Source of the DNA: an uncultured Oscillospiraceae bacterium
GTDB lineage: Bacteria; Bacillota; Clostridia; Peptostreptococcales; Anaerovoracaceae
Length of the DNA stretch: 61,911 nucleotides
Direction: 5' to 3'
NCBI GenBank assembly: GCA_964619875.1
Contig: CAZUFU010000001.1
Location: 1-61,911 of the forward strand
The position numbers were made by a program, and so were the translations under genes. The notes under the pieces are model-generated. The model was not told the DNA's origin, ran no database searches, and was given only the letters and a program-made list of their open reading frames with translations. Below are positions 7,973 through 39,224 of the stretch, one piece after another. Numbering within the stretch: the stretch's first letter is position 1; every line of letters begins with the position of its first letter.

Positions 7973-9073
7973 ATGAAAAAAGTATTAACCTTGGCACTGA
8001 CTGCAGTGCTTTGCCTTGGCCTTGTATTCATGACAGGCTGCGGAGGAGGCAACATCGAAATGCCATATTCCGGATATGATCTGACGGAATATGTAACGCT
8101 GCCTGATTATGACAGCTATACCACCCAGAAGCCTGATGTCACCATCACAGATGAGGATATAGACGCGGCAATCGACGAAGTTCTGGCCCAGTATCCTACA
8201 ACGGAAGAGGAAACTGAAGGTGTTGTAGAGAAAGGCGATAAAATCAGATATTCCTACAAAGGAACTCTGGCAGATGGTTCTACTACAGACGGTATGAATG
8301 CCGACAATCAGGAGATGATTCTGGGACAGGCAAGCATGATTGACGGTTTTCAGGAGGGAATGTACGGGGCAACCATAGGCGAGCCTGTGACTCTCAATCT
8401 GAAGTTCCCTGACCCTTATCCCAATAATGAGGACCTGTCAGGTAAAGACGTCACCTTTGTGGTTACTGTAAATGCCAAACTTGTGGACGTTCCTGCCGAG
8501 CTTACAGATGATTTTGTAAAAGAACACAGCGACGAAAAGAATGTGGCGGACTACAGAAAGAGCATGGCTAAGCAGCTTGAAGAAGAGGAGACCGAAGAAC
8601 AGCTTTACAACCTCAAAACCAAGATATGGAATCAGATTGTAGCTGAGACTGAAATCACCGAGGTAATTGCCCTAGAGGTGGACAGCAAAGTTGAGATGTT
8701 CAATACACGATATGAAAAGCTTGCAGAACAGCAGGGCATGGAGTGGGAAGAATTTCTCGATGAGTACTTCAAGTACGATACAGATGAATATAATGAGCAG
8801 ATCAGACTTTATGCGGAAAGCATGGTAAAGACGGAAATGATTGTCTATGCTGTCGCTCAGAAGGAAGGTATCGAAGTTTCCGAAAAGGAATATGAAGAGC
8901 AGCTTAGCAGCATTTTGACAGCTTATGGCTACTCTGACAAGGAAAGCTTTGAAGATGCGGCAGGAATGGCTCTGGATCAGTTTGCTGAAGAGCAATATTC
9001 ACTTAAACTGAACCTGTATCTGGAAAAAGTGCTGGATGTAATTTATGACAGAATAGCTAAAGACGCGGAATAG
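7973..9073 (+). CDS. Lipoprotein trigger-factor paralog (FKBP-type PPIase plus TF C-terminal arm domain, no ribosome-binding N-domain)
   Basis: Lipobox FMTGCGG. TF-like middle region VTITDEDIDAAIDEVL...EKGDKIRYSYKGTLADG...MIDGFQEGMYGATIGEPVTLNLKFPDPY...LSGKDVTFVVTVN..ELTDDFVKE. Confidence 0.75.
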   Translation: MKKVLTLALTAVLCLGLVFMTGCGGGNIEMPYSGYDLTEYVTLPDYDSYTTQKPDVTITDEDIDAAIDEVLAQYPTTEEETEGVVEKGDKIRYSYKGTLADGSTTDGMNADNQEMILGQASMIDGFQEGMYGATIGEPVTLNLKFPDPYPNNEDLSGKDVTFVVTVNAKLVDVPAELTDDFVKEHSDEKNVADYRKSMAKQLEEEETEEQLYNLKTKIWNQIVAETEITEVIALEVDSKVEMFNTRYEKLAEQQGMEWEEFLDEYFKYDTDEYNEQIRLYAESMVKTEMIVYAVAQKEGIEVSEKEYEEQLSSILTAYGYSDKESFEDAAGMALDQFAEEQYSLKLNLYLEKVLDVIYDRIAKDAE

Positions 9074-9085
9074 GCGTACGGAAAT

Positions 9086-9757
9086 ATGTATAACATTTTA
9101 ATTGTCGAGGATGACAGAACCATAGCAAGAGCTATGAAAAATCATATCGAGGCATGGGGCTTCAATGCCCGCTGTGCAGAGAATTTCAGAAACATTATGG
9201 AGGAGTTTGCGGATTATAATCCGCAGCTCGTCCTTCTGGACATTTCTCTGCCTTTTTTTAACGGCTATCACTGGTGCAGCGAGATACGGCGCGTGTCAAA
9301 GGTTCCTATAGTCTTCATTTCTTCTGCCTCGGACAATATGAACATAGTAATGGCCATGAATATGGGCGGGGACGATTTCATTGCAAAGCCCTTTGACCTT
9401 AACGTGCTGACGGCTAAGGTACAGGCTATACTGAGAAGAACCTACGATTTTGCCGGACAGACGGGAATTATCGAGCACAGGGGAGCCATGCTGAGTACTC
9501 AGGACACAAGCCTTACCTACAATGGACAGACTATAGAACTTTCCAAAAATGAGTATCGAATCCTGCTCACCCTTCTTGAAAACAAAGGCAAGGTTGTCAG
9601 CAGGGAGACACTCATGGAAAGACTCTGGGCTACTGACAGCTTCGTAGATGAGAATACTCTCACGGTGAATGTTACCAGGCTGAGAAAGAAGCTGGAAGCT
9701 GCCGGCCTTGAAGATTTCATAACAACCAGAAAGGGCATGGGCTACATATGCTTGTAA
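9086..9757 (+). CDS. OmpR-family response regulator (BceR-like)
   Basis: Receiver domain (LLDISLP) plus a winged-helix domain (LTVNVTRLRKKL...RKGMGY). Confidence 0.9.
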   Translation: MYNILIVEDDRTIARAMKNHIEAWGFNARCAENFRNIMEEFADYNPQLVLLDISLPFFNGYHWCSEIRRVSKVPIVFISSASDNMNIVMAMNMGGDDFIAKPFDLNVLTAKVQAILRRTYDFAGQTGIIEHRGAMLSTQDTSLTYNGQTIELSKNEYRILLTLLENKGKVVSRETLMERLWATDSFVDENTLTVNVTRLRKKLEAAGLEDFITTRKGMGYICL

Positions 9758-10722
9758 AATACATGAAAACCCATATCAAGAGTATGCTTCTGTTTGCAGT
9801 ATTCTCTGTATCCATGGTCACTGTAATGATAGTTTTTGACGCAGATATAAGACCGGTGCTCTACGGGCTGGTGATATGCGCTTTTCTTGGAGGTGTGCTG
9901 GCAGCATGGGATTTTTCGCGATATTGTGATAAACATGAGCTGCTGGCTTTTGTAGAAAAGGAAATAACGGAAACCATGGATCATCTGCCTGCTCCCAGAG
10001 ACCTGCTGGAGGAGGATTACACACGGATTATCAAATCGTCATTTGACGACAGAATGCGTATTTCTTTTGAAAACAGCCGGAACTACGAGGAAATGACCGA
10101 ATACTACACCATATGGGCTCACCAGATAAAGACCCCTATTGCGGCAATGCGGCTCATTCTGCAGACGGAACCGGACAGTACTGCTATGCGCGAGATTTCC
10201 GATGAGCTGTTTAAGATAGAGCAGTATGTGGAAATGGTACTATGCTACCTGCGTCTTGACGGCGGAAGCGACTATGTAATAAAGCCATGCAGTTTGGATG
10301 AGATTGTGAAACAATCAGTAAGAAAATATGCTTCTCAATTCATAAGAACCAGAAACAGGCTGATATATGAGGGAACTGATGCCGTTGCTGTCACAGACGA
10401 GAAATGGCTGGGGTTTATAGTGGAGCAGGTTCTTTCCAATGCGCTGAAGTACGCTGATGAGGGAGAAATAAGAATTACGGTGGAGAACAGTGAATTGGTA
10501 ATAAGTGATACAGGTATAGGAATTGCCCCTGAGGATCTCCCTCGCATCTTCGAAAAAGGTTACACCGGATATAACGGCAGAGCAGATAAAAAATCCACAG
10601 GTATCGGACTATATCTCTGCAGTCGTATCGCAGATAAAATCGGATGTTCCATAAGAGCTCAGTCAGAGTGCGGAAGTGGAACCACCATAAGGATTGAACT
10701 GGGGGACCTTACAAAAATGTAA
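9748..10722 (+). CDS. Intramembrane-sensing histidine kinase (BceS-like)
   Basis: Two N-terminal TM helices with almost no extracellular loop. H-box WAHQIKTPIAAM and an HATPase domain (SDTGIGI, STGIGL). Overlaps the response regulator by 10 nt. Confidence 0.9.
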   Translation: MLVKYMKTHIKSMLLFAVFSVSMVTVMIVFDADIRPVLYGLVICAFLGGVLAAWDFSRYCDKHELLAFVEKEITETMDHLPAPRDLLEEDYTRIIKSSFDDRMRISFENSRNYEEMTEYYTIWAHQIKTPIAAMRLILQTEPDSTAMREISDELFKIEQYVEMVLCYLRLDGGSDYVIKPCSLDEIVKQSVRKYASQFIRTRNRLIYEGTDAVAVTDEKWLGFIVEQVLSNALKYADEGEIRITVENSELVISDTGIGIAPEDLPRIFEKGYTGYNGRADKKSTGIGLYLCSRIADKIGCSIRAQSECGSGTTIRIELGDLTKM

Positions 10723-10733
10723 GATTACAAAGA

Positions 10734-10775
10734 GGAAATGTAAGCCAAAGCTATGGCAGAGCATTTCCTTTTTTT
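10734..10775 (+). terminator. Hairpin plus T7 between the kinase gene and the ABC genes (terminator and/or operator)
   Basis: GGAAATG (10734-10740) / CATTTCC (10762-10768), with an inner GCCA/TGGC stem, followed by TTTTTTT. Confidence 0.45.
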
Positions 10776-10824
10776 GTACAATGAGAGCATAAAACAGAAA
10801 GGGGACCCGGGAGGGGTAAAAAAG

Positions 10825-11607
10825 ATGACAATATTAGAAGTGAATAATGTAAAGAAGATATATACCACCAGATTCGGCGGTGCCAAGGTGCAGGCTCTTT
10901 CCAACGTATCCTTTACAGTGGAGGAAGGCGAGTTCGTGGCTATTATGGGAGAATCAGGCTCCGGCAAGACCACCTTGCTGAATATTCTGGCATCACTTGA
11001 CAAGCCGACCAGCGGTGAGGTGAAGCTGAAGGGCATGAACCTGTCAGCCATAAGAGAAAGAGATATAGCCTCCTTCAGAAGAGATCATCTGGGCTTCGTT
11101 TTTCAGGACTTTAACCTTATGGACAATTTTTCAGTGATGGATAATATTTTCCTGCCTCTGGTGCTTTCGGGGAAAAAGTATCCGGAGATGAAGGAACGCC
11201 TGAGACCCATTGCAGAGGGTCTTGGCATAAGTGAGATTCTGCAGAAATATCCTTACGAGGTTTCAGGTGGCCAGAAGCAGCGTACTGCAGTGGCAAGAGC
11301 TGTCATAACCAATCCGGAACTTATTCTGGCAGATGAGCCTACAGGAGCGCTGGACTCCAGATCGGCAGACGAGCTTCTTAATATTTTCAGGGAGATAAAT
11401 CAGTCGGGACAGACAATTCTCATGGTTACTCATTCAATCAAGGCTGCCAGCAAGGCGGGCAGGGTACTGTTCATAAAGGATGGAGAGGTTTTCCATCAGC
11501 TGTACAGAGGAGCCGGAGACGATGATGAAATGTTCCAGAGAATTTCTGATACTCTGACTATGCTTCAGTCAGGAAGCGATATGAGGGCAGGCGGTGAGAG
11601 ACAATGA
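10825..11607 (+). CDS. ABC transporter ATP-binding protein (BceA-like)
   Basis: Walker A GESGSGKTT and signature VSGGQKQR. The start is moved to ATG 10825, which follows GGGAGGGG. Confidence 0.9.
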   Translation: MTILEVNNVKKIYTTRFGGAKVQALSNVSFTVEEGEFVAIMGESGSGKTTLLNILASLDKPTSGEVKLKGMNLSAIRERDIASFRRDHLGFVFQDFNLMDNFSVMDNIFLPLVLSGKKYPEMKERLRPIAEGLGISEILQKYPYEVSGGQKQRTAVARAVITNPELILADEPTGALDSRSADELLNIFREINQSGQTILMVTHSIKAASKAGRVLFIKDGEVFHQLYRGAGDDDEMFQRISDTLTMLQSGSDMRAGGERQ

Positions 11608-13676
11608 CAGGGGGACTTTTTGCAAAACTTGCATTGACAAACATACGAAAGAACAGGAAGATATATGGACCTTACATTTTTGCATGCGTAGGCGTAGTGA
11701 TGATGTTCTATATAATCAGCAGTCTGGCTCATGACCCGGATGTACTCGATTTTTACTGCGGCAGGTCAGCGGCTATGATACTCAATCTGGGCAGTGTGGT
11801 TGTGAGTATTTTTGCCATAATCTTTCTTTTTTACACCAGCAGCTTTCTCATGAAAAGAAGGAAGACCGAGCTTGGACTCTATAATGTGCTTGGATTGGGG
11901 AAAGGGCATATTATAAAGATTCTGGCCTGGGAGACTTTGATCGTATGGGGGTCAAGCCTGGTGCTGGGTCTTGTTTCCGGCATGGTTTTCGGTAAGCTGG
12001 CTCAGGTGGGACTTCTGAGAATGATGGGCGGCGGTGTGAACTACAATTTTAATTTCAGTGTCGGAGCCATGATAGCGACAGCTGCTTTGTTCGCGGGGAT
12101 TTTTGTGATTATTTACATTAAGAACGTAATTGAGATTTATAGAATGAAGACTATAGATCTGCTGTACAGCGCTAAAGAGGGGGAAAAGAAGCCTCGTGCC
12201 AACTACGTGCTGGCAATTGCAGGCGTTGTAATGCTGGCGGCAGGCTACTATATTGCGCTTGCGGTGAAAAATCCGCTGGAGGCGATTACCTTCTTCTTCT
12301 TTGCGGTTATTCTGGTTATTGCGGGAACATACTCATGTATGATTTCCGGCAGTGTGGCGCTGCTTTCCGCAATGAAAAAGAATAAAAACTATTATTACAA
12401 AACCAGTCATTTCATATCCACATCATCCATGATGTTCAGAATGAAGAAACACGGTGCCGGTCTTGCCAGCATCTGCATTCTGGCTACAATGGTGCTGGTT
12501 ATGATTTCCTCGACGGCATGTCTGTACATCGGTGCTGACAAAGCCATGGGTACAACTTATCCAAGGGATATGGAAATAGAGTACACAATGCGCGGCAGCA
12601 ATGGGGAAACTCTTCATGCAGCATCATCAGACCTGAACCGGGTGGTTACAAGGGTGATAAATGACGAGGACATAAAGCTCGCCGGTGAGATTGAATACAG
12701 CCTGTGCAGCTTCTATGGGAAACCTGATGATACGGATGGTACATCTTTCAGATGCTCAGTCTTTAACGGAAACACAGATGTAATCAGCCTGTCCCTGGTA
12801 ACTCTGGAGGATTATAACAGAAGCTTCAGCAGGAATGAATCTCTGGCGGCTGATGAGGTGTTAGTATTCGGTAAGGGCATAAGCTATGACAAACCTGTTA
12901 TCAGCTTTGGAGGAGAAGAGCTTAAGGTGAAAGGAGAGGCCTCAGGGCTGGTAATGCGTGGTATTGATGCCGCAGACATGAGCGACTGCCTGTATCTGGT
13001 GGTTGCGGATGAAAGCGTGCTTATGAGGATATATGATATCGTTGAGAAAGAGGCTATGGAAGACAGCTGCCCGGGACCGCAGCTGGTGGCATACAGGGCA
13101 TTCGATATAATGGCAGATGACGGTTCGAGAGTTCAGGACAGTGAAAGGCTTAATCAGGTACAGGAGACCATATATAAGGTTCAGAACGAGGGATATGACG
13201 GAACATTCAGCGGTTCAGCCCAGTACAGCCGCATGGACCTCGGCATAAGAAACAGAGCAAATGCAGGAGAAATATACGGACTTTACGGCGGGCTGTTTTT
13301 CCTGGGGATTCTACTGAGCGTGCTCTTTATGGGGGCTACAGTAATAATCATGTATTACAAACAGGTCATAGAAGGATACGACGATAAGGAAAGATTCGAT
13401 GTCATGCAGAAGGTAGGCATGAGCCGCCATGAGGTCAAAAAGACCATAAACTCTCAGGTGCTGACCGTATTTTTCATTCCGCTTCTGGGGGCAGGGGTCC
13501 ATATGGCATTTGCTTTCCCGATAATAGCACTGATGCTTAGAGTCTTCATGATAAGCAATACGTCTTTGCTTGCGGGAATAACTCTGGGGGCATTCGCTGC
13601 ATTCGCCCTGTTCTACGTTGCATCCTATCTTATAACATCGAGGGCATACTATAGGGTAGTAGCTGCCGAGCAATAG
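11604..13676 (+). CDS. FtsX-domain ABC permease with a large extracellular domain (BceB-like)
   Basis: 690 aa. The N-terminus LALTNIRKNRKIYGPY is typical of the family. There is a large hydrophilic insert between TM clusters. Overlaps the ATPase gene by 4 nt. Confidence 0.85.
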   Translation: MTGGLFAKLALTNIRKNRKIYGPYIFACVGVVMMFYIISSLAHDPDVLDFYCGRSAAMILNLGSVVVSIFAIIFLFYTSSFLMKRRKTELGLYNVLGLGKGHIIKILAWETLIVWGSSLVLGLVSGMVFGKLAQVGLLRMMGGGVNYNFNFSVGAMIATAALFAGIFVIIYIKNVIEIYRMKTIDLLYSAKEGEKKPRANYVLAIAGVVMLAAGYYIALAVKNPLEAITFFFFAVILVIAGTYSCMISGSVALLSAMKKNKNYYYKTSHFISTSSMMFRMKKHGAGLASICILATMVLVMISSTACLYIGADKAMGTTYPRDMEIEYTMRGSNGETLHAASSDLNRVVTRVINDEDIKLAGEIEYSLCSFYGKPDDTDGTSFRCSVFNGNTDVISLSLVTLEDYNRSFSRNESLAADEVLVFGKGISYDKPVISFGGEELKVKGEASGLVMRGIDAADMSDCLYLVVADESVLMRIYDIVEKEAMEDSCPGPQLVAYRAFDIMADDGSRVQDSERLNQVQETIYKVQNEGYDGTFSGSAQYSRMDLGIRNRANAGEIYGLYGGLFFLGILLSVLFMGATVIIMYYKQVIEGYDDKERFDVMQKVGMSRHEVKKTINSQVLTVFFIPLLGAGVHMAFAFPIIALMLRVFMISNTSLLAGITLGAFAAFALFYVASYLITSRAYYRVVAAEQ

Positions 13677-13683
13677 ATTCTTA

Positions 13684-13712
13684 AACCCCGGACACAGGTC
13701 GTCCGGGGTTTT
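13684..13712 (+). terminator. Intrinsic terminator after the BceB-like gene
   Basis: AACCCCGGAC / GTCCGGGGTT stem followed by TTT. Confidence 0.8.
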
Positions 13713-13785
13713 GAGCATATTTTTGCCTGCGTTGAATATAATATATCATTACATTAAAACCCAAAGGACAGCGGGAGGACAAGGT

Positions 13786-14037
13786 ATGCTGAGCACAGAT
13801 AAACTTAAGAATAAAGAAGTCATAAATATTTATGACGGCAGGAGCGTAGGCTTCGTAAGCGATATAGAGGTGGATCTGGAAAAAGGGGTTATAGGAGGAA
13901 TAGTCATCCCGTCGGAGAGAGGCTTTCTGGGATTATTCGGACGAGGTGAAAACGACATACTTATCAAATGGGAAAAAGTAAAAACCGTAGGCGATGATGT
14001 GATTTTAGTGGACTTAGGACCACAAGATGTGGTATAG
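13786..14037 (+). CDS. YlmC/YmxH-family sporulation protein (PRC-barrel)
   Basis: Family-like sequence LKNKEVINIYDGRSVGFVSDIEVDLEKGVIGGIVIP. The start is set at the ATG after GGGAGGA. Confidence 0.8.
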   Translation: MLSTDKLKNKEVINIYDGRSVGFVSDIEVDLEKGVIGGIVIPSERGFLGLFGRGENDILIKWEKVKTVGDDVILVDLGPQDVV

Positions 14038-14074
14038 TATATGAAAAGAGTACCGAGAATGGAGGTATGAAAGC

Positions 14075-14536
14075 ATGAAATGCCCGTTTTGTGACAACCC
14101 TGATACTAAAGTTATAGATTCACGTCCTACAGAAGAAGGACATGCCATAAGAAGAAGACGCGGCTGCGATAAATGCAACAAACGCTTTACCACATATGAA
14201 AAGGTTGAGGAAACTATCCTTATGGTCGTAAAGAAGGATAATCGCCGTGAGGTATTCGACAGGCAGAAGGTGCTTAACGGTATAGTCAAAGCCTGTGAGA
14301 AGCGCCCTGTTTCCATGGCCAGAATGGAGCAGATGGTTGACGATATCGAACGGGAGCTGAACAACCGCATGGAAAGAGAAGTGGACAGCACCTATATCGG
14401 AGAGCTTATTATGGAGCAGCTCAAGAAGGTGGATGAGGTGGCCTACGTGCGTTTTGCTTCCGTATACCGCCAGTTCACGGACGTGAACACTTTCATCAAG
14501 GAGATAGAAAAACTCATAGGAAAGCAGGATAAGTAG
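14075..14536 (+). CDS. nrdR: Transcriptional repressor NrdR
   Basis: [18 protein letters not shown] zinc ribbon plus an ATP-cone domain. Confidence 0.95.
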
Positions 14537-15190
14537 ATGACGGAAAGAATTTTCAGAATTGCAATTGACGGACCCAGCGGTGCCGGAAAGTCAACCATTG
14601 CCAAGGCGGTGGCAAAACGTCTGGGTATAGACTATATAGATACCGGGGCTATGTACAGGGCCATCGGACTCAAGATGCTCTCTGAGGGCATTGCCATGGA
14701 GGAAAGTGATGCTCTGTCAGACATGCTGGCCCGCACGGAAATTGATTTTGACAAGGGAAACGTGTTCCTCGACGGCAGAATAGTAAACGATCTTATCAGG
14801 ACACCTGAGGTTTCAAAGGCAGCTTCCGACTGCTCGGCACTGGGCTCTGTGAGGAGCAAGCTGGTGGAGCTTCAGCGCAAGATGGGACAGTCAAAAAGCG
14901 TCATAATGGACGGCAGGGACATTGGAACAAACGTGCTGACTGATGCTGAGTACAAGTATTTCCTTACGGCAACTGCAGAGGAAAGGGCTTTGCGCAGACA
15001 CAAGGAGATGCTGGAAAAGGGACAGGAAAGTGATCTGGCCCAGGTGCTGGCCCAGATTGTGGAGCGTGACCATAATGATTCAACCCGTGCATTGAATCCT
15101 CTTAGGAAGGCGGAAGATGCTGAGGAAATAGACAGCACCCACATGACCATCGACCAGGTGGTAAACTATATCTGCGATAAGGTGGAATGA
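14537..15190 (+). CDS. cmk: Cytidylate kinase
   Basis: IAIDGPSGAGKST P-loop and DTGAMYR. Confidence 0.95.
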   Translation: MTERIFRIAIDGPSGAGKSTIAKAVAKRLGIDYIDTGAMYRAIGLKMLSEGIAMEESDALSDMLARTEIDFDKGNVFLDGRIVNDLIRTPEVSKAASDCSALGSVRSKLVELQRKMGQSKSVIMDGRDIGTNVLTDAEYKYFLTATAEERALRRHKEMLEKGQESDLAQVLAQIVERDHNDSTRALNPLRKAEDAEEIDSTHMTIDQVVNYICDKVE

Positions 15191-15198
15191 ATGAAAAA

Positions 15199-15234
15199 TA
15201 CCTCTGACGGCAAAACTACCTCTGACGGTAAAAC
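15199..15234. repeat. Tandem 18-bp direct repeat TACCTCTGACGG(C/T)AAAAC x2
   Basis: Read directly: 15199-15216 and 15217-15234, with 1 mismatch. It lies between the cmk stop and the PBP RBS. Confidence 0.85.
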
Positions 15235-15254
15235 GACCGTTGGAGGTTTTTATT

Positions 15255-17180
15255 ATGGAAAAAAGCAGGAAACGGGTGAAGACAGCTCTTATATTTTTTG
15301 TGGTGCCGATGGCAGCACTGGCAGGCCGCCTTTTTTTTATACAGGTGATGTGCCACGATGATTTCAGTGAGGCGGCCACAGCACAGTATGAAATGGTTGT
15401 TGAGGGCATTGATACACGTGGGCAGATTTTTGACAGAAACATGAACCCCGTTACCGGAGGCAGCTGCCAATATTATTACATTATAAAAAAAGAACGCATG
15501 ACTGATGAGGGTTCGGAACTTCTGGCAGCTACAGGCGCCAGTAAACTGACATCAGATGATTCCAGGTATCTGGTCTATAGGAGTGAGATGTACAGTGAAG
15601 GAATTAGTGAAAGGCTTAAATCTGACTTTAATGCGTATGTTTTCTGCAGCACCTCCAGATATTCTGATGTGCAGCCTGCTTGCCATCTGGTAGGTTATCT
15701 CAATCAGTCGGAAAAACGGGGTGTTTCCGGACTGGAATACATGTTTGAGGAAAGGCTGAAGGCAGGCAGGAACCGACTTGTGCTTACTGCAGATGCTGCC
15801 GGTAACATTCTGCCCGGTCGGGCACCATACATTCGAAGTGAGGAAAGCACAGCACCGGAGGATAATTCCGTTGTAACCTCCATTGAGCTTGGCCTGCAGA
15901 AAAGGTGTGAGGAACTTATGGCCGAAGCTTGCGGAAACTCATCAGTGAGTGACGGTTCACGGCATGGAATCCAGTCTGACTCTGACCTCGGCTCCGAAAA
16001 TGACCCCGGCTCCGGTGCCTGCATAGTGGCTGATGCAGCCAGCGGCGAAATACTTGCTATGGCATCTGTCCCGACTTTCAATCCCAACAGAATCGCAGAA
16101 TGCCTTCAAAGTGACGGGGATTGTCTTATCAATAAGGCACTTCAGGCTGCCTATCCTCCAGGTTCAGTATTCAAACTGGTTGTCGCCGCTGCTGCTCTCG
16201 AAAATGGACTCTGCACGGCAGACCGTCTGTATGAATGCAGCGGCGAGACGGAGGTGGAGGGAGTGACTGTTTCATGCTCTACCGCACCGGAGGGTGGCCA
16301 TGGCATGATAAATATGTACGATGCTATGGCACATTCATGCAACTGTTATTTTGCTCAGCTTGGGCGTGACATAGGACGGAATGCTATTCTGGATATGGCA
16401 TCACAGCTAGGTCTGGGAAGTGAGGTTCTGGATGACTATCCTGAGGAAAGCAGCGGCTTTGTCCCCGATGCGTCAGAAACTGACCGGCAGGAGATTTCCA
16501 ACATATCTATCGGTCAGGGCCGCCTGCTGACAACGCCCCTCCAGATATCCAGGCTTACGGCAATCATAGCAGGGGGCGGCGCCAGCAGGCCCATTCATGT
16601 GCTGGCGGGCCGGTCCGGGCTGTCATCCTCAGAGACAATTTCACCGGCCGCCAGCGCGACGATGTCCGCGGCGTCCTCAAATGAAGAACAGGCCGCCAGC
16701 GCGACGCCGTCCGCGGTGTCCATGCACGAAGAACCGGCCGCCAGCGTAGTGCCGGCACCCCCGGCATCCTCTCCGGCAGATCCGGGTGGTGCAAATGACA
16801 TTACCAATTCTGCCTTTACGGCCTTAACAGATGAAATCTCCCGCCAATATATATCGCGGCAGACGGCACAGACCCTTCAGACGATGATGCGCGGTGTAAT
16901 GACCGATGGCACCGCTTCATCAAAAGCCTGGGAACTGCCTGTGTGGGGGAAGTCAGGAACAGCGGAGGCATCGCGAGGCGGCAGGGCCGTGAAGGACTGC
17001 TGGTTTATCGGATTTTGTGATATTGCCATGCCTGAGACAGAGGCTTATGGTGCGGACCGAACTAGGAGATTCGTCATTACTGTATTCGTGGAAGACGGTG
17101 TATCCGGTTCGGCCACGGCATTGCCTGTATTCAGGAAGATAACAGAGTATTTAAGCGCACATGTTGAGGATTATATCTGA
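15255..17180 (+). CDS. Class B penicillin-binding protein (PBP2/SpoVD-like transpeptidase) with low-complexity insertions
   Basis: Motifs SVFK (SxxK), SCN (SxN) and KSGT (KTG). N-terminal TM anchor. ATG 15255 follows GGAGG. Confidence 0.85.
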   Translation: MEKSRKRVKTALIFFVVPMAALAGRLFFIQVMCHDDFSEAATAQYEMVVEGIDTRGQIFDRNMNPVTGGSCQYYYIIKKERMTDEGSELLAATGASKLTSDDSRYLVYRSEMYSEGISERLKSDFNAYVFCSTSRYSDVQPACHLVGYLNQSEKRGVSGLEYMFEERLKAGRNRLVLTADAAGNILPGRAPYIRSEESTAPEDNSVVTSIELGLQKRCEELMAEACGNSSVSDGSRHGIQSDSDLGSENDPGSGACIVADAASGEILAMASVPTFNPNRIAECLQSDGDCLINKALQAAYPPGSVFKLVVAAAALENGLCTADRLYECSGETEVEGVTVSCSTAPEGGHGMINMYDAMAHSCNCYFAQLGRDIGRNAILDMASQLGLGSEVLDDYPEESSGFVPDASETDRQEISNISIGQGRLLTTPLQISRLTAIIAGGGASRPIHVLAGRSGLSSSETISPAASATMSAASSNEEQAASATPSAVSMHEEPAASVVPAPPASSPADPGGANDITNSAFTALTDEISRQYISRQTAQTLQTMMRGVMTDGTASSKAWELPVWGKSGTAEASRGGRAVKDCWFIGFCDIAMPETEAYGADRTRRFVITVFVEDGVSGSATALPVFRKITEYLSAHVEDYI

Positions 17181-17219
17181 GAAAAAAGGTCTGTTACAGT
17201 CAGAATAATTAAAAATGCC

Positions 17220-17612
17220 GAATTGTCACCCCTGCCCATCGAGTTTTCAACGGTTTGCGGCGTCGCAGGGTTTACCTTTTCGGCTAATAGCGCCCAGAGC
17301 AGGACTGTCAAAATCCGAATTATAAACCCTGACCTTCGAGTTTTCAACGGTTTGAGGCATCGGAGGGTTAACTTTTTAGAAGTTTTTCAACTGAAGAAGT
17401 CCTATAATCTGTGAATTGTCACCCCTGCCCATCGAGTTTTCAACGGTTTGCGGGCTCGAAGGGTTGACTTTTTCAGCTATTTTCACCAGAAGAAGTCCTA
17501 AAAACTGTGAATTGTCACCCCTGCCCATCGAGTTTTCAACGGTTTGCGGCTTCGAAGGGTTGACTTTTGCCCAAAACAGCCCTGAGCCAACGGAAAACAG
17601 CCCTGAGCCGAC
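17220..17612 (+). repeat. Four-copy tandem array (96-97 bp period) of a hairpin plus T-run element, with a trailing 21-bp duplication
   Basis: Unit starts are at 17220, 17317, 17413 and 17509. The conserved core is GAATTGTCACCCCTGCCCATCGAGTTTTCAACGGTTTGCGG..TCGAAGGGTTGAC(T)n. AAAACAGCCCTGAGCC occurs at 17573 and 17594. Confidence 0.9.
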
Positions 17613-17692
17613 AAAAGCCAACCGCCTACTGTCATAAGTCAACCATGGTTCTCATGCATTGAATCAGCAATGTTAAAAATCACACTATCCCC

Positions 17693-17721
17693 TTGAAAAA
17701 CACACACTTTTCAAGTAAAAT
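17693..17721 (+). promoter_or_regulatory. Candidate sigma-A promoter of the cdaA operon
   Basis: TTGAAA (17693-17698), a 17-nt spacer, then TAAAAT (17716-17721). Confidence 0.5.
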
Positions 17722-17752
17722 AGAATTGATTAAGTATGGGAGAATGAGATTT

Positions 17753-18598
17753 ATGGAACAATTTGTTGAAAAAATAGTTTCAGGCATCGGATTTACAGAT
17801 ATTCTGGACATCCTGATCGTGACATTTATCATCTACAAACTCATCGGATTTATAAAGGAGACCAGAGCCGAGCAGCTTGCCAAGGGGTTGCTGCTGCTTG
17901 TAATTGCGACGCTGCTTTCCAAGGAACTGCAGCTTTACACACTGCACTGGATTCTTTCAGGACTGATGACAGTAGGACTGATAGCAGTTGTGGTAATTTT
18001 CCAGCCTGAACTGAGAAGGGGTCTTGAATACCTTGGCAGAAGCAAGTTCAGCAATGTGCTCAGCGAGGTGGACAAGGAAGAAGCAAAATACATGGTAGGC
18101 CAGCTTGTAGAGGCAATCGATGACATGTCAGCCTCTAAGACCGGAGCACTAATTGTAATCGAGAGAGAGACATCTCTTAGCGACATAGTTGAGACAGGGA
18201 CCGTCATAGACGCAGCTGTATCAGCACAAATGATAGGAAATATCTTTTATGAGGGCGCACCTTTGCATGACGGAGCACTCATAATCAGAGGCGACAGGCT
18301 TTATGCAGCAGGCTGCGTTCTGCCGCTTACACAGAATAAAAATCTGAACAAGGAACTTGGAACAAGGCACAGGGCCGGCATAGGTATATCTGAAAACTCA
18401 GATGCCCTGGTGATAATCGTTTCAGAGGAAACAGGCATAATTTCCATAGCACAGAACGGTAAGCTGACCAGATTCCTTGACGTTAAGAAAATTGAAAAAA
18501 CCCTGTATAATATATACCTGGAGGAATCCAACAGGACGCTGAGCGAGAAGCTGTCGTCAATCCTCAAGGGTGTGAAGCAAGGGGGTAAAAAATGCTGA
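17753..18598 (+). CDS. cdaA: Diadenylate cyclase CdaA (c-di-AMP synthase)
   Basis: Three N-terminal TM helices. DAC domain motifs PLHDGALII and TRHRAGIGISE. The start is placed at ATG 17753, downstream of the predicted promoter. ATG 17744 is an alternative. Confidence 0.9.
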   Translation: MEQFVEKIVSGIGFTDILDILIVTFIIYKLIGFIKETRAEQLAKGLLLLVIATLLSKELQLYTLHWILSGLMTVGLIAVVVIFQPELRRGLEYLGRSKFSNVLSEVDKEEAKYMVGQLVEAIDDMSASKTGALIVIERETSLSDIVETGTVIDAAVSAQMIGNIFYEGAPLHDGALIIRGDRLYAAGCVLPLTQNKNLNKELGTRHRAGIGISENSDALVIIVSEETGIISIAQNGKLTRFLDVKKIEKTLYNIYLEESNRTLSEKLSSILKGVKQGGKKC

Positions 18599-19814: not shown

Positions 19815-21164
19815 ATGGGAAGACTTTTCGGAACCGATGGAGTAAGAGGAATTGCCAATAAGGAACTTACTCCGGAGCTGGCATTCAATCTGGGGAAGGC
19901 AGGAACTTTCGTGCTCAGTAGGGAAAGCAAAAGACCTACCATAATCATAGGCAGGGATACGAGAGTATCCGGTGATATGCTGGAAAACGCTTTAACGGCA
20001 GGTATTCTGGCCGTTGGCGGCAATGTTATCAAGGCAGGCATTATACCCACACCGGCGGTAGCTTATCTGACCAGATACTATAAAGCCGATGCAGGCATCG
20101 TTATAAGCGCCTCCCATAACACATTTGAATACAACGGAATAAAGTTTTTTAACTCAGAGGGTTTCAAACTTGATGATCTCATAGAGGAAAAAATAGAGGA
20201 CATAATTATAAGCAGCATAGATGTGAACAGCCATATTACCGGAGACCTTATAGGCAAATGCCTGGAGGCAGAGGAAAGTGCGGCTGAACTTTATGCAGAG
20301 CATCTGATACAGACCGCCGACTTCCGCCTGGACGGCAGGAAGGTGGTTCTGGACTGCGCCAACGGAGCATCATATCAGGTGGCCCGCCGTGTGTATGAAA
20401 GTCTGGGGGCCGAAGTGGTCACTATAGGAGACAGCCCTGATGGTATAAACATCAATGACGGGTGCGGCTCCACTCATCCTGAAAAGCTCCAGGAAAGGGT
20501 GGTTAAAGAAGGTGCTTTCATAGGCCTGGCATTTGACGGAGACGCAGACAGACTTATAGTTTCCGATGAAAAGGGCCGGGTCCTGGATGGAGACAAGACG
20601 ATTGCCATCTGTGCCAAGATGCTTAAGGCGGAAGGGCGCCTTAAGGATGATAAGGTAACTGCTACAGTTATGAGCAACATAGGTTTTCACAAGGCTATGG
20701 AAGCGGAAAATATTGCAGTGGACGTTACCGGGGTGGGTGACAGGTATGTACTTGAGAAAATGCTGGAAACGGGCTGTGTAATCGGAGGCGAGCAGTCAGG
20801 ACATATAATTTTCTTGGAGCACACCACTACAGGCGATGGCATTTTATCTTCACTTCAGTTTGTGAAGGCAGTCCTTGCAAGCGGCAGACCTGCTTCTGAG
20901 CTTGCGGATGAAATCGCAATCTATCCTCAGGTGCTTGTAAACGCAAAAATCAACAACGACTACAAAAAGACCTATGCAAAAGACCCGGAAGTTGCTGATG
21001 CAATCAAAACTGCTGAGGAAAAGCTGGCAGGGTCGGGACGTGTTCTCATAAGACCTTCCGGCACTGAGCCACTTGTTAGGGTAATGCTTGAGGGCAGCGA
21101 TACAGAACAGATAAATGAACTGGCGGAAGAACTTGCTGCTCTGATAGAAAGAAAATTCAAATAG
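19815..21164 (+). CDS. glmM: Phosphoglucosamine mutase
   Basis: FGTDGVRG and SASHNTFEYNGIKFF, the latter containing the catalytic Ser. Confidence 0.95.
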   Translation: MGRLFGTDGVRGIANKELTPELAFNLGKAGTFVLSRESKRPTIIIGRDTRVSGDMLENALTAGILAVGGNVIKAGIIPTPAVAYLTRYYKADAGIVISASHNTFEYNGIKFFNSEGFKLDDLIEEKIEDIIISSIDVNSHITGDLIGKCLEAEESAAELYAEHLIQTADFRLDGRKVVLDCANGASYQVARRVYESLGAEVVTIGDSPDGININDGCGSTHPEKLQERVVKEGAFIGLAFDGDADRLIVSDEKGRVLDGDKTIAICAKMLKAEGRLKDDKVTATVMSNIGFHKAMEAENIAVDVTGVGDRYVLEKMLETGCVIGGEQSGHIIFLEHTTTGDGILSSLQFVKAVLASGRPASELADEIAIYPQVLVNAKINNDYKKTYAKDPEVADAIKTAEEKLAGSGRVLIRPSGTEPLVRVMLEGSDTEQINELAEELAALIERKFK

Positions 21165-21173
21165 GAGTATAAA

Positions 21174-23009
21174 ATGTGTGGTATTGTAGGATATACTGGC
21201 AGAGATAATGCCAGAGACATTATCATTGACGGTCTTAAAAAACTGGAGTATCGCGGCTATGACTCGGCGGGAATTGCCTTGCTCATAGACGGAGAGATAA
21301 ACATAAAGAAACATGTAGGCGGCATTGAGAACCTGGAAAATCTCATTGCCGGTGAAAACCTTTACAGCCATACGGGCATAGGACATACCAGATGGGCAAC
21401 CCACGGCGCACCATCTGATATAAATGCTCATCCTCACGCCAGCGAGGACGGCAGGGTTGCCATAGTGCACAACGGAATCATAGAAAACTACGTGGAGCTT
21501 AAACAGGAACTCATAGAAAAGCACCATGTTCACTTTAAATCGGAGACCGATACGGAAGTAGTAGCGCATCTGATAGGAATTTACATGAAGGAAAGCGACT
21601 GCCTGGAGGATGCTGTATTTAAGGCTATGGGGCGCATGAGAGGTGCGTATGCCATTGTGGCCATTTCTGCAGATGACCCGGATAAGCTGGTTGCTGTAAG
21701 AAAGGATGCACCACTTATTGCGGGACTGGGCAAAGGCAGCAATTTCATTGCTTCCGACATTCCGGCACTGCTTAAGTACGTAAAGGAAATCTATCTCATA
21801 GAAAACGGTGAGATGGTTGTGGTTACACCTGACAGTGTGAAGATTTTCGATGAGAACAGAAATCCTGTGAAGCGCGATGTTTTCCATGTGACATGGGATG
21901 TGGATGCAGCCGAAAAAGAGGGATACGAGCACTTCATGCTCAAGGAGATTTTTGAGCAGCCTAAGGGCATAAGTGAGACTATAAACAGACGTCTTGATGA
22001 AAACAGAAAGATAAAGCTGGACGGTATTTCCCTTACGAAGGAGGAACTGGACCGGTTTTCTAAAATATATATTGTAGCCTGCGGCACGGCTTACCATGCC
22101 GGCCTGGTGGGCAAGACCATAATCGAGAAATTTGCAAAAATTCCTGTGGAGGTTGATGTTGCCTCTGAGTTCAGGTATAGGGATCCTCTGGTTGACCAGA
22201 ACACTCTGTTTATTGCAATCAGCCAGTCAGGAGAGACTCTTGACACTCTGGCAGCCTTGAGAGAGGCCAAGAGGAAGGGCGCGAGAATTCTCAGCGTTGT
22301 CAATGTGGTGGGAAGCTCTGTGGCCAGAGAATCTGACGATGTGTTTTACACATGGGCAGGTCCGGAAATTGCAGTAGCTTCAACCAAGGCATATACTACA
22401 CAGCTGACCTGCATGTATCTTCTGGGACTGTACATGGGGCTTCAGAGAGGGACCATCTCGGAGGACTTCTATAAGGAATTTATCGAAGACCTTTCGGCAA
22501 TACCTCAGAAGCTGGGAGACTACCTGAAAAGGAAGGGTGAAATCGAAGCTCTGGCGAAGCTCCTTTATAACCGCGATCAGGTATTCTTTATAGGTAGGGG
22601 ACTGGATTCGGCAATTGCCTATGAAGGATCTCTGAAGCTTAAGGAAATTTCATATATCAATTCCTTTGCCATTGCGGCAGGAGAGCTGAAGCACGGAACC
22701 ATAGCACTTATGGAGCCGGGAACCCTGGTGCTGGCTCTGGCCACACAGGATTTTCTGTACGAGAAAATGATTTCAAATATTCAGGAAATCAAGGCGAGAG
22801 GCGCCCATGTGCTTTCCATAGCAAAAGAAGGCAATCGTGCAATAGAGTCTCAGAGCAACGAGGTTATATATATACCGCCTTGCCGTGACGAGCTCAGCCC
22901 TCTGCTTTCCGTAGTACCGCTGCAGCTTTTCTCATATTATGTTGCAAAGGAACGAGGATGTAATATTGACAAACCGAAGAATTTAGCTAAATCAGTAACT
23001 GTAGAATAG
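21174..23009 (+). CDS. glmS: Glutamine--fructose-6-phosphate aminotransferase
   Basis: MCGIVGY N-terminus, two SIS domains, C-terminal KSVTVE. Confidence 0.95.
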   Translation: MCGIVGYTGRDNARDIIIDGLKKLEYRGYDSAGIALLIDGEINIKKHVGGIENLENLIAGENLYSHTGIGHTRWATHGAPSDINAHPHASEDGRVAIVHNGIIENYVELKQELIEKHHVHFKSETDTEVVAHLIGIYMKESDCLEDAVFKAMGRMRGAYAIVAISADDPDKLVAVRKDAPLIAGLGKGSNFIASDIPALLKYVKEIYLIENGEMVVVTPDSVKIFDENRNPVKRDVFHVTWDVDAAEKEGYEHFMLKEIFEQPKGISETINRRLDENRKIKLDGISLTKEELDRFSKIYIVACGTAYHAGLVGKTIIEKFAKIPVEVDVASEFRYRDPLVDQNTLFIAISQSGETLDTLAALREAKRKGARILSVVNVVGSSVARESDDVFYTWAGPEIAVASTKAYTTQLTCMYLLGLYMGLQRGTISEDFYKEFIEDLSAIPQKLGDYLKRKGEIEALAKLLYNRDQVFFIGRGLDSAIAYEGSLKLKEISYINSFAIAAGELKHGTIALMEPGTLVLALATQDFLYEKMISNIQEIKARGAHVLSIAKEGNRAIESQSNEVIYIPPCRDELSPLLSVVPLQLFSYYVAKERGCNIDKPKNLAKSVTVE

Positions 23010-26821: not shown

Positions 26822-26865
26822 GACCGGAAAGGCCGGACGTGATGTCCGGCTTTTTCCGGTTTTTG
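26822..26865 (+). terminator. Intrinsic terminator after nhaC
   Basis: Nested stem ACCGGAAAGGCCGGAC...GTCCGGCTTTTTCCGGT followed by TTTT. Confidence 0.85.
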
Positions 26866-36215: not shown

Positions 36216-39200
36216 TTATTCAATCGACTTCAGCGATTCAGTCATACTGATCTTTTCCAGCCTGAAGTACATTACGAAGTTTACTATGCCTGCAAAAACA
36301 AAGGTCATGACAACGGCCAGCACATAGCTTAAAGGCTGTATATGCATATTGAAGCTCATCAGGTCAATCTGTATCTGATTGATGATAAAGGCATGGAGAA
36401 CCTTTCCTATAGGAAGACCCACCAGGGCCGCAATAGCCGTGAGCATTATGTTTTCACGGAATACATAGGACGATGTTTCGTTAGGGTAGAAGCCAAGAAC
36501 CTTGATGGTGGCTATTTCCCTTATACGCTCAGTAATGTTGATGTTGGTCAGGTTATAGAGGACTATGAAGGCCAGAGCGCCGGCACAGCCGACCACCAGC
36601 ATGATTATGTAGTTCATGCTCTTCATCATATTGGAAATACGGTCGCGGAAATCCTTAGTGATTGAAACAGAAGCCACATTGTCTGCATTCATCAGATATG
36701 CGCCGTCTGCGCTCGTATCTGCAATTTCACCGTCTTCTCCGATGACTCCGAGGACGAAAGCCGTGTTGGTTTCCATGTGTCCCCACTGCTCTTCGTAAGA
36801 AGTACGATTAAGGTATACGTAGTGATATACGTAGTTTTCACAAAGTGCTGTAATTTTGAGATTCATCTCCCGCATGTCACTGTCGAATACGGTGAGAGTA
36901 TCTCCGGCCTCTAGTCCGAGTTTCTGGGCCAGGTTTTCGTTTATGACGCATTCGCCGTCACCCGGGAAGGTGATAGGGCCGTCTTCATTGTGAAGGTCGA
37001 TAAACTTTTCTATAGGAGCATCCTTCTCTGCCACTACCATGTTTACTGATTTAACGGCATTGCCTGCATGGGCATCCACCGAAAGGGCATTAAGGAAAAG
37101 ACAGTCGGAAATTACACTGCTGTTCTCATCCATGAATTCCTGCTGTTCATCTGCGGTGAGGTCTTTGTCGAAGGTAACTGTATAGTCCACATGGAATATA
37201 TTATCGTACTGGTCGGAAACCACATTTTTAACAGAATCATTTATTCCGAAGGCGGCCACCAGGAGAGCTGTACAGCCGCATACACCGATAATCATCATGA
37301 AGAAACGTTTTTTGTAGCGGAAGATATTTCTCATTGAAACCTTACGAAGGAAGGAAAGCCTCTTCCAGATGAAGCCGATACGCTCCAGCAGGATGCGCTT
37401 TCCCATGGCAGGTGTCTTAGGTCTGATAAGCTGAGAAGGTACTTCCTTAAGTTCTCTGTAGCAGGAGAAAATAGTGCTTCCCACAGCGCATACCAGTGCT
37501 GCCAGAATGGACAATCCACCCAGTTTCCAGTCTATTACGAAAATTATATCGGAGAAGTTGTACATCATTCCGTAGGCGGCCCATATTACCCAAGGGAAAG
37601 CATAGGAGCCCGAAATGAAGCCTGTCAGTCCTCCGATGAGAGTGGCGCTTGCCGAGTATATCACATATTTTTTCAGAATGGTGTTTCTGCTGTAACCCAG
37701 CGCTTTAAGTACGCCTATCTGGGTGCGCTGCTCATCAACCATTCTTGTCATGGTGGTCATAACAACCAGTGCAGCCACGATAAAGAAGAAGATAGGGAAC
37801 AGCTTGGCGATTCCGTCCACTATGCTTGAATCGTTTTCAAAGCAGACATAGCCGATATTGGTATCTCTGCCGAGAACGTAGGTGTCAGGATGTTCTATAT
37901 CATCGATTTCATCTCTGGCGTCGTCCAGTTCTTCTTCGGCGTCGGCAATTTTTTTCTTGCCGTCAGCGATTTCCTGCTTGCCGTCGGCAATTTTCTTTCT
38001 GCCATCGGCCAGGTCAGCTCTGGCTTCCTTAAGCTCCTGTCTGCCGTCTGATATTTTCTTTTCGCCTTTTTCTATTTCGATACGTCCTTTTTCCAGTTCT
38101 GCCCATGCGGCTTCAAACTGGCTGTCTGCCTGGGTCTTAGCCTGGGTGTACTGAGCCAGATACTGGTCATAGTACGGTGTACCTGCTGCCATGTCAACTT
38201 GAGACTTGAGCTGGTCAAGCTGCCCATAGGCATCGGCTTTTTCGCTGTTATATTTTTCGACGCCGTCCTCGTACTCGGTTCTGGCTTTTTTCAGGTCTTT
38301 TTCGGAATCGTCAAGTTTCTTTTCGTTGTCTTTTATTTCTTTTTCGGCATCTGCCAGTTTCTTTTCGTTATCCTTGAGCTTCTTTTCGCCATCGGCCAGG
38401 TCGGCTTTGGCATCGGCCAGTTTTTCTTCAGCATCAGCCAGCTTTTCGTTGGCCTCATCCATTATTTCATCGTATCTGGCGCTGCCGCAGCTTTCCAGCG
38501 CATCGGTGAGAGGGTTCTCCATGCTATCTGCGATTTCCTTGTATTCATCGGTGAAAATAGGGGCGGTCTTTTCCAGATCGACATAGATTTCTGTGAAGTA
38601 ATCGCAGTCCCATGCCTCTGGAGTTATGTATATAAATGCTGCCACCTTGCCGTCGCCCAGAGATGTGGATCCTCGTTCAAAGTTAAGGTAGAGAGGAGAA
38701 GTCGCCAGGCCGGTTATGGTATATTCACGGCCTGCCAGCATATCAAGAGTGTCCTCCTCGTTTCCGGCGGTTAGATATATGGTTTTGCCTATGTCTTCGG
38801 AACTGAAATGCAGTGAATCAACGACGCATTCGTCAGCGCTTTCAGGCATACGTCCTTCTACAAGGGAAAGTGTGCTTATTTTTTGACTGACGGTGTGGAG
38901 TTTTGCCACATTTTCACCGTTTTCCGTTTCTTCTTCTTCGAAGAGTATGTCTGCAGACCATGAGCCTTCCGCATATCTGACACCATCCACAGCATTGATT
39001 GTATCCACGCTTTCATCATCCAGACCCAGTGTGGAAATCAGCTCGTAGTCGAAAAGGTTGTGTTCGTCCAGAAAGGTGTCTCCGGTAAGGGTGAAGGCAT
39101 CCTTGCAGACCTTAAGACCGCAGAAAAATCCAACTCCCAGCATGACGATGGCAAGTATGGCCAGCCATCTGGTTAAGCTGCCTCTGATTTCCCGCAGTGT

Positions 39201-39224
39201 AGATTTAGTCATCATGTTTTTCAT
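36216..39224 (-). CDS. Large FtsX/MacB-type ABC permease (two FtsX domains, extracellular domain with a long coiled-coil repeat)
   Basis: 1002 aa. N-terminus LREIRGSLTRWLAILAIV. Coiled coil KLADAEEKLADAKADLADGEKKLKDNEKKLADAEKEI... and ...ADGRKKIADGKQEIADGKKKIADAEEEL. TM clusters occur mid-protein and at the C-terminus. Confidence 0.85.
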   Translation of the reverse strand: MKNMMTKSTLREIRGSLTRWLAILAIVMLGVGFFCGLKVCKDAFTLTGDTFLDEHNLFDYELISTLGLDDESVDTINAVDGVRYAEGSWSADILFEEEETENGENVAKLHTVSQKISTLSLVEGRMPESADECVVDSLHFSSEDIGKTIYLTAGNEEDTLDMLAGREYTITGLATSPLYLNFERGSTSLGDGKVAAFIYITPEAWDCDYFTEIYVDLEKTAPIFTDEYKEIADSMENPLTDALESCGSARYDEIMDEANEKLADAEEKLADAKADLADGEKKLKDNEKKLADAEKEIKDNEKKLDDSEKDLKKARTEYEDGVEKYNSEKADAYGQLDQLKSQVDMAAGTPYYDQYLAQYTQAKTQADSQFEAAWAELEKGRIEIEKGEKKISDGRQELKEARADLADGRKKIADGKQEIADGKKKIADAEEELDDARDEIDDIEHPDTYVLGRDTNIGYVCFENDSSIVDGIAKLFPIFFFIVAALVVMTTMTRMVDEQRTQIGVLKALGYSRNTILKKYVIYSASATLIGGLTGFISGSYAFPWVIWAAYGMMYNFSDIIFVIDWKLGGLSILAALVCAVGSTIFSCYRELKEVPSQLIRPKTPAMGKRILLERIGFIWKRLSFLRKVSMRNIFRYKKRFFMMIIGVCGCTALLVAAFGINDSVKNVVSDQYDNIFHVDYTVTFDKDLTADEQQEFMDENSSVISDCLFLNALSVDAHAGNAVKSVNMVVAEKDAPIEKFIDLHNEDGPITFPGDGECVINENLAQKLGLEAGDTLTVFDSDMREMNLKITALCENYVYHYVYLNRTSYEEQWGHMETNTAFVLGVIGEDGEIADTSADGAYLMNADNVASVSITKDFRDRISNMMKSMNYIIMLVVGCAGALAFIVLYNLTNINITERIREIATIKVLGFYPNETSSYVFRENIMLTAIAALVGLPIGKVLHAFIINQIQIDLMSFNMHIQPLSYVLAVVMTFVFAGIVNFVMYFRLEKISMTESLKSIE

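Follow-up and report, generated by a model that had tools for sequence, protein, structure and literature searches.

Mycobacterial interspersed repetitive units (MIRU) are dispersed at tens of loci per genome, often with short open reading frames (ORFs) that overlap the flanking genes, and REP/BIME elements number tens to hundreds per genome, often alternate in orientation and are linked to RAYT transposases. Transposons can be excised precisely by slipped mispairing of short direct repeats on either side of a palindrome. Each lhrC copy of the LhrC1-4 family of Listeria monocytogenes has a verified LisR-dependent promoter and carries UCCC seed motifs in its loops (PMC4132741). The tandem array considered here bears some likeness to each of these and lies in a 61,911-nt stretch of DNA from an uncultured gut bacterium, labelled Oscillospiraceae and assigned to the Anaerovoracaceae by the names given to relatives of its CdaA (metagenome-assembled contig CAZUFU010000001.1, referred to as the window), between the gene for a penicillin-binding protein (PBP) and cdaA, the gene for c-di-AMP synthase, in the orientation of both genes. 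It is a variable-number tandem repeat (VNTR) confined to one lineage, and its unit is a selectively conserved hairpin and T-tract element at the PBP transcript's 3' end, most likely a transcription stop signal duplicated repeatedly and not one of a battery of small RNA genes.

Anatomy of the array

Tandem Repeats Finder placed an array at 17220-17568 (period 96, 3.6 copies, 78% matches, score 408), and a repeat search resolved it into four head-to-tail copies, which begin at 17220, 17317, 17413 and 17509 and lie 97, 96 and 96 nt apart. Both bear out the four-copy array with a 96-97 nt period that an earlier note, made from the letters of this DNA alone, had described. The window contains the invariant 17-mer GAGTTTTCAACGGTTTG exactly four times, where 0.16 occurrences would be expected, and none of 100 shuffles reached that count. 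Alignment showed each unit to comprise a conserved core of approximately 62 nt, a T-run and a diverged spacer arm of approximately 35 nt, which agrees with the three-part structure first proposed. The array closes with a 21-nt duplication, AAAACAGCCCTGAGCC at 17573 and again at 17594 (two exact matches against 0.06 expected), as had also been noted. The gap of 570 bp originally given between the PBP stop codon and the cdaA promoter holds as the distance to the cdaA ATG but not for the promoter, which is approximately 512 nt away. Among the copies, units 1, 3 and 4 have identical stretches of 41 nt in common, and the cores of units 3 and 4 differ at only three of 62 positions.

Relatives were traced via PBP and CdaA homologs and their contigs. 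The element was found in three sister species (approximately 85-88% DNA identity, with a difference of approximately 30% at four-fold-degenerate sites), always at the junction of the PBP gene and cdaA. Six units, comprising window u1-u4 and those of contigs L118 and L119, were aligned (alignment A2), and one helix is common to all of them: an outer stem of GT(C/A)A(A/C)CCCTGC with GCAGGGTT(G/T)AC, directly 5' of the T-run, formed by columns 21-31 with 61-71. Over the six units 83% of the cells of this 11-bp stem are paired, compared with 32-46% when the 3' partner is slid by one to three columns; its CCCT/AGGG pairs are invariant, and the stem of unit 1 reads CCCTGC/GCAGGG. The T-run keeps a fixed + strand position in all six units. 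The core hairpin claimed in the earlier note stands as an inverted repeat before a T-run in every unit, although the register given for it (CCCATCGAG/CTCGAAGGG) fits units 3 and 4 only. Taken as far as the T-run, the hairpins have energies between -10.8 and -18.8 kcal/mol across the units; the stem abuts the T-run in units 3 and 4, L118 and L119, and unit 3 is the best folder (-21.1 kcal/mol, z = -2.1). The array thus has what defines one part of an intrinsic terminator, namely a G+C-rich stem directly 5' of a U-tract on the transcribed strand.

Constraint and copy number among relatives

Orthologous 62-nt cores differ at five or six positions (8-10%), unit 1 differing from L118 at 5/62 and from L119 at 6/62, whereas four-fold-degenerate sites differ by 30-34% between the sister species. 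The core substitution deficit by comparison with four-fold sites has a binomial P from 3e-6 to 2e-4, and only eight of the 62 core columns vary across the three species. Local non-coding sequence gives the same contrast: in the 39-nt upstream flank the window and L118 agree at 74% of positions and L118 and L119 at 69%, whereas the core reaches 90-92%, and the spacers are approximately 71% identical in comparisons with L118. The flank of the window is 95% identical to that of L119, which may reflect local exchange; the L118 comparisons are free of this problem. Given 8-10% divergence in the core against approximately 30% at neutral sites, the core is constrained and, judged from these substitution patterns, is under purifying selection.

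The number of units differs between strains at one site, a comparison that the earlier note had put forward as a check: there are four in the window, one in L118, at least one in L119, where the contig ends inside a unit of the unit 1 type, and none in L122. Head-to-tail units that differ in number between strains at a single locus are what characterizes a VNTR. In L118 exactly one unit is followed by a 12-nt restart, GAATTGTCAACC, so that the unit is bounded by 12-nt direct repeats; L122 represents the empty site, with a single GAATTGTCAACC and no unit, this zero-unit allele resting on a contig of 2.5x coverage. L122 and L118 are 99.8% identical over 3267 nt with no differences at 451 four-fold sites, and the indel that separates them is exactly one 97-nt unit flanked by the perfect 12-nt direct repeat. 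On this alignment, zero and one unit are separated by a very recent indel that is precise and has a direct repeat at its bounds. The earlier note had held that absence from close relatives, with no effect on the expression of flanking genes, would speak for a trivial repeat; L122, near-identical to L118, does lack the element, and the three sister species have it.

The unit of L118 combines a core of the unit 1 type with a spacer of the unit 2/3 type, which suggests later contraction from a larger array, and two or more units were probably present in the ancestral array, as read from these mixed types. In the window species, three independent Logan contigs end precisely at 31-mers shared between units, confirming a multi-unit array in those samples, and the independent Logan contig L001 begins inside the core of unit 4 and confirms the downstream sequence. 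More distantly, relatives at 86% CdaA identity (L133-137) have no unit, their PBP gene and cdaA being separated by just 90 nt, and in relatives at 88-93% CdaA identity, which also have no unit, a histidine kinase gene adjoins cdaA.

Proposed termination and its alternatives

The reading that we favour, at a little under an even chance, is that the array would be a copy-number-variable, iterated intrinsic terminator or 3'-untranslated region (3'-UTR) element of the PBP gene, acting in cis. Transcription of the + strand out of the PBP gene would meet in each unit an imperfect hairpin of approximately 50 nt, made of the 11-bp outer stem round a conserved interior of approximately 29 nt, with the T-run directly after it. 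Each unit would then be a leaky intrinsic terminator or a 3'-end stabiliser, and units in series could sum to tighter termination and shield the independent promoter of cdaA-cdaR-glmM-glmS from read-through. Expansion and contraction could proceed by unequal recombination between the identical 41-nt stretches of units 1, 3 and 4, and deletion by a slipped-strand event across the palindrome between the 12-nt GAATTGTCAACC repeats, which include the 5' arm of the hairpin. Of the explanations raised in the earlier note, an iterated terminator or insulator fits best, with an inverted repeat and T-run in every unit and the array standing upstream of an autonomous cdaA promoter, although we infer both termination by the units and the tuning of read-through by copy number.

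Several observations weigh against this reading. The hairpin is not canonical, having an interior of approximately 29 nt by comparison with the 3-8 nt loops of good terminators in this genome, an example of which lies elsewhere in the window at 26826-26856; the units thus lack the compact, short-looped hairpin (approximately 3-8 nt) of an intrinsic terminator, and a consensus terminator scan allowing loops of 3-8 nt called none of the unit hairpins, bar a small alternative hairpin in unit 1. The minimum-free-energy (MFE) stem of units 1 and 2 stops 6 nt short of the T-run, a poor terminator geometry, and folding z-scores are modest throughout, with only unit 3 (-2.1) and L119 (-2.3) standing out. 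No covariation was found in the outer stem, shuffled columns pairing at 82.3% against 83.3% for the real ones and 198 of 500 shuffles reaching the observed value, although a test on six related sequences has little power either way. The RNAalifold consensus is weak (-6.8 kcal/mol for the + strand and -10.1 kcal/mol for the minus strand), with covariation terms that are positive and hence unfavourable. The compensatory pairing that had been proposed for copy 2 proved to be a change from mismatch to pair, not a two-sided covariation, and the pair counts carry no covariation signal; likewise the covariation check that the earlier note had suggested, made on the alignment of the six units, gave nothing beyond column shuffles. 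No terminator at all was found between the PBP gene and cdaA in L122 and L133-137, from which it follows that termination at this junction is dispensable. Finally, the hairpin interior is as conserved as the stem, beyond the need of a plain terminator, which indicates an additional sequence-specific role.

Conservation of the interior beyond neutral expectation, not needed by a bare terminator, is also the main attraction of a multicopy small RNA (sRNA), in which each unit, or a terminated 3' fragment of the PBP mRNA, would give a 60-90 nt RNA whose conserved interior (GAGUUUUCAACGGUUUGCGG) or C-rich 5' part would pair with target mRNAs or serve as a protein-binding site. The position of the array between cell-wall genes is suggestive, and conserved terminator loops can serve as seed regions, as in LhrC (PMC4132741). 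An A/T-rich -10-like box does lie 4-8 nt upstream of every core in the alignment, so that the box described in the earlier note before each next core is present; it has no -35 partner, however, and is lost in the spacer of L118 (CCCAACAACCCGT). A consensus scan of the + strand for hexamer pairs of the sigma-70 type, the only type sought, found none in 17181-17692, and the first unit follows directly after the PBP stop codon. UCCC motifs are absent from the predicted loops of the units, and there is no Rfam match: at gathering thresholds Rfam 15 recognised only a tRNA in the whole window, and a scan of 17100-17800 at E <= 10 returned two meaningless eukaryotic matches, both outside the array. 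The earlier note, which did not recognise a named RNA family in the core, is accordingly borne out. A target search of 49 local translation-initiation regions found complementarity no better than that of shuffled sequence in any of them, 30-79% of shuffles equalling it, and the unit is missing from the near-identical L122 and hence dispensable. The battery of sRNAs with promoters of their own that had been envisaged is not supported, there being no + strand promoter of this type, no retention of the -10 box in L118 and no target that stands out among the 49 local regions, and we consider the sRNA reading in general unlikely. Rather doubtful too is a related possibility, suggested by the conserved sequence of the core, that it may be an undescribed structured RNA of a gut Anaerovoracaceae genus, either a 3'-UTR-derived regulator or a ligand- or protein-responsive terminator, with a copy number (0 to 4) that would tune the coupling of PBP and the cdaA operon. 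The opposite view, that the array is a functionless minisatellite produced by neutral slippage and possibly exaggerated by assembly, would account for a copy number that varies and is zero in one strain, for the several other tandem duplications in the window and for the weakness of the folding and covariation evidence. It is improbable, the core being three to four times less diverged than four-fold sites, flank and spacers (P about 1e-5), contrary to neutrality, and the array having been seen in independent samples and assemblies.

Low divergence between species could instead reflect recent spread rather than selection if the unit were a small non-autonomous mobile or REP-like element that inserted site-specifically at GAATTGTCAACC with a 12-nt duplication and was then amplified locally. 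The precise L118/L122 indel of one 97-nt unit with its perfect 12-nt direct repeat, between strains without four-fold differences (0/451), is as expected of such an element, as are cores far less diverged than neutral sites and a hairpin core like that of REPs. Against it, neither BLAST nor an nhmmer profile found further copies of the core in the 62-kb window or in approximately 1 Mb of fetched loci, which included approximately 11 kb of sister-species DNA and approximately 190 kb of related contigs; the amplification of a genome-wide REP that the earlier note had considered is for this reason not supported by these sequences. Dispersed copies thus number zero in the window and these loci, and a search for exact 19-mer and 17-mer words through 185,579 species genomes, viral contigs and 241 million metagenome records produced chance single matches only, although such exact words, the 19-mer included, would miss the variants of the sister species (C>T in L118, G>A in L119). 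There were two such matches in the genomes, one in the viral contigs and 111 in the metagenome records, and their flanks fit the core at 10.7 of 45 positions on average, which is the random level. Plasmid and phage collections gave no match, so that an origin from either was rejected. By inspection, the 85-nt insert of L118 has no terminal inverted repeats; there is no transposase or RAYT gene nearby, the neighbours being housekeeping genes, and presence at the same site in three species is more simply explained if the element was already in their ancestor and was later deleted by strand slippage across the palindrome. A mobile element is thus quite improbable. Least of all do we expect an array of minus-strand promoters from which antisense transcripts would run into the PBP gene at its 3' end, a reading we hold to be very improbable. 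The minus strand of each core does read TTGAAA-17-(G/T)A(C/T)AAT, with the -35 hexamer and 17-nt spacing kept in all six units, and the variable -10 positions shift towards consensus in unit 2 (TTGAAA-17-TATAAT, 11/12, the best promoter-like match of the region) and in L119 (TACAAT). Four of the six units nevertheless score only 9/12, which is background (20 kb of shuffled sequence gives approximately 30 such sites), the copies arose by duplication and so do not count as independent, the conserved T-run would have no role on that strand, and no minus-strand terminator or ORF follows.

Other candidates were tried and set aside. A protein-coding repeat seemed conceivable, 96 nt being 32 codons and the + strand having ORFs of 63 and 73 aa; it was rejected, as these ORFs begin at TTG and lack a ribosome-binding site, a stop codon interrupts the frame in L119, there is no Pfam match and the 97-nt length of unit 1 shifts the reading frame between units 1 and 2. 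A CRISPR array was ruled out by the diverged repeat of approximately 62 nt, by the lack of cas genes among the neighbours and by the homology of the spacers, those of units 2 and 3 and of L118 being approximately 71-80% identical to one another. TIGR and type III antitoxin arrays were ruled out on unit size, homologous spacers and housekeeping gene context.

Flanking features, significance and comparison with known systems

Table 1. Coordinates of the array and of the features on either side of it in the window
Feature	Coordinates	Strand	Remarks
PBP (FtsI/PBP2-type transpeptidase) gene	15255..17180	+	PF00905, E = 2.8e-47; array follows its 3' end
Non-coding flank, PBP stop codon to first unit	17181..17219	+	39 nt; local neutral control
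Unit 1	17220..17316	+	Core 17220-17281, spacer 17282-17316; ortholog of single units in L118, L119
Unit 2	17317..17412	+	Most diverged copy; 11/62 core differences from other units
Unit 3	17413..17508	+	Outer stem 17418-17428 with 17458-17468; T-run 17469-17473
Unit 4 core and T-run	17509..17572	+	Duplicated tail in place of spacer
Two 21-nt tandem copies (AAAACAGCCCTGAGCC + 5 nt)	17573..17614	+	Array end
Diverged terminal partial unit CATAAGTCAACC	17633..17644	+	Ortholog of 12-nt direct repeat GAATTGTCAACC
Autonomous cdaA promoter and leader, outside repeat	17674..17752	+	Shine-Dalgarno GGGAG
cdaA (c-di-AMP synthase)	17753-18598	+	Then cdaR (YbbR), glmM, glmS

The orthology of the terminal partial unit (Table 1) was assigned from the alignment of the window with L122 and from the L118 and L122 sequences; this partial unit is also complementary to the 3' arm of unit 4, with which it forms an inverted repeat. 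Downstream of it, the consensus scan located a promoter-like site for cdaA, TTGAAA-17-TAAAAT, with the -35 hexamer at 17693 and the -10 ending at 17721 (17693-17721). The promoter and leader block is almost invariant in seven lineages, whether the upstream gene encodes a PBP or a histidine kinase, and this conservation whatever lies upstream places the array outside the cdaA transcription unit and not in its leader; a cdaA leader or riboswitch was therefore ruled out. Decayed duplication of the cdaA promoter and 5' coding region as the origin of the units was likewise rejected, local alignments being no better than shuffle means (z = +0.4 to -1.3). Short collinear matches to the cdaA 5' region are present (TTTTCAA, GAATTG and GTTTxAGGCATCGGA), and GTTTGAGGCATCGGA of unit 2 (17350-17364) matches codons 9-13 of cdaA, GTTTCAGGCATCGGA (17777-17791), at 14 of 15 positions compared with 11-12 of 15 for the other units, a match that may be due to chance or to a short conversion tract.

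The cdaA promoter itself contains a perfect 8-nt inverted repeat, CTTGAAAA (17692-17699) and TTTTCAAG (17708-17715) separated by 8 nt, which overlaps both the -35 hexamer and the spacer and hardly varies among the window, L122, L133, L123, L138, L139 and L140. It is a candidate operator for a regulator of the c-di-AMP synthase operon. Further along, glmS starts 10 nt past the glmM stop codon (21164-21174) in one cdaA-cdaR-glmM-glmS operon. A glmS ribozyme was not detected in the whole window (Rfam gathering scan, with a tRNA the sole match), so that feedback by glucosamine-6-phosphate (GlcN6P) must work otherwise in this organism. The cdaA promoter also marks a synteny break, as seen by comparing 7973-17752 of the window with L123-L132 and L138-L149. 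In the relatives at 88-93% CdaA identity a response-regulator/histidine-kinase pair directly adjoins cdaA, whereas in the window this pair lies at 9086-10722, approximately 7 kb from cdaA, the interval being occupied by a 284-aa ORF (10753-11607) and the genes for an FtsX-type permease and a PRC-barrel protein, nrdR, cmk and the PBP gene.

Other duplications of the slippage type are present in the window at 15194-15238, 16646-16746 and 17573-17614, which suggests a lineage prone to tandem duplication. The sequence at 15194-15247, between cmk and the PBP gene, is an 18-nt tandem repeat, AAAACTACCTCTGACGGC, in 2.5 copies; the last copy folds into a 12-bp hairpin (15218-15247) within which lies the Shine-Dalgarno sequence of the PBP gene, GGAGG, and TTTTATTATG, with the start codon, comes next. 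The hairpin could be a terminator for cmk or a translational control element for the PBP gene. Within the PBP gene, 16646-16746 is a 45-nt (15-codon) tandem duplication in 2.2 copies that falls in an Ala/Ser/Pro-rich linker and is further evidence of slippage duplications in this lineage; the protein has 641 aa in the window and 588-611 aa in the sister species. Elsewhere, an ATCTCT microsatellite at 42537-42637 (16.8 copies, 92% matches) lies in the minus-strand ORF 41625-42785, where it would encode an Arg-Asp (AGA GAT) repeat, and overlapping 21- and 42-nt tandem repeats at 37932-38441 lie in a 1002-aa minus-strand ORF (36216-39224), which probably encodes a repeat-containing surface or coiled-coil protein.

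If the units terminate transcription, the locus would show in nature how copy number can set terminator strength, where a peptidoglycan synthase gene meets an essential c-di-AMP/GlcN-6-P operon, and the variation of 0 to 4 units between strains would offer an experiment already set up. Conservation of the interior suggests a role beyond termination, which makes the core a fair, if low-priority, candidate lineage-specific RNA motif. In practical terms, the array breaks short-read assemblies in several datasets, and it can split metagenome-assembled genomes and hide the linkage of the PBP gene and cdaA. Its general importance is limited, as it belongs to one clade and one locus and is dispensable in one strain.

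By comparison with known systems, the element is classed as a lineage-specific hairpin minisatellite or terminator repeat, one that would work most like tandem terminators and evolves like an intergenic VNTR. With tandem intrinsic terminators it has in common an iterated + strand hairpin with T-run, situated between the 3' end of a gene and an independent promoter. It differs in having an 11-bp stem round a constrained interior of approximately 29 nt instead of a 3-8 nt loop, and in that its units, as putative terminators, are homologous duplicates at a 96-nt period. MIRU-type VNTRs are likewise intergenic tandem units of 40-100 nt between co-oriented genes, varying in number between strains, whereas the element described here is non-coding and found at one locus only. 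The resemblance to LhrC1-4 lies in tandem, near-identical Firmicute units of approximately 100 nt, in a terminator hairpin with a conserved loop and in a cell-envelope theme (PMC4132741), although the array has no detectable promoter, loop UCCC, target found, sequence similarity or Rfam match. REP/BIME elements are conserved imperfect palindromes at the 3' ends of genes, sometimes in tandem clusters, and can stabilise or terminate transcripts; the array units are all in direct orientation, with no other copy found and no RAYT gene. Finally, the L118/L122 indel resembles precise excision in removing exactly the segment between 12-nt direct repeats that enclose an inverted repeat, although no transposon is involved and the direct repeat may be the truncated start of the next unit and not a target-site duplication.

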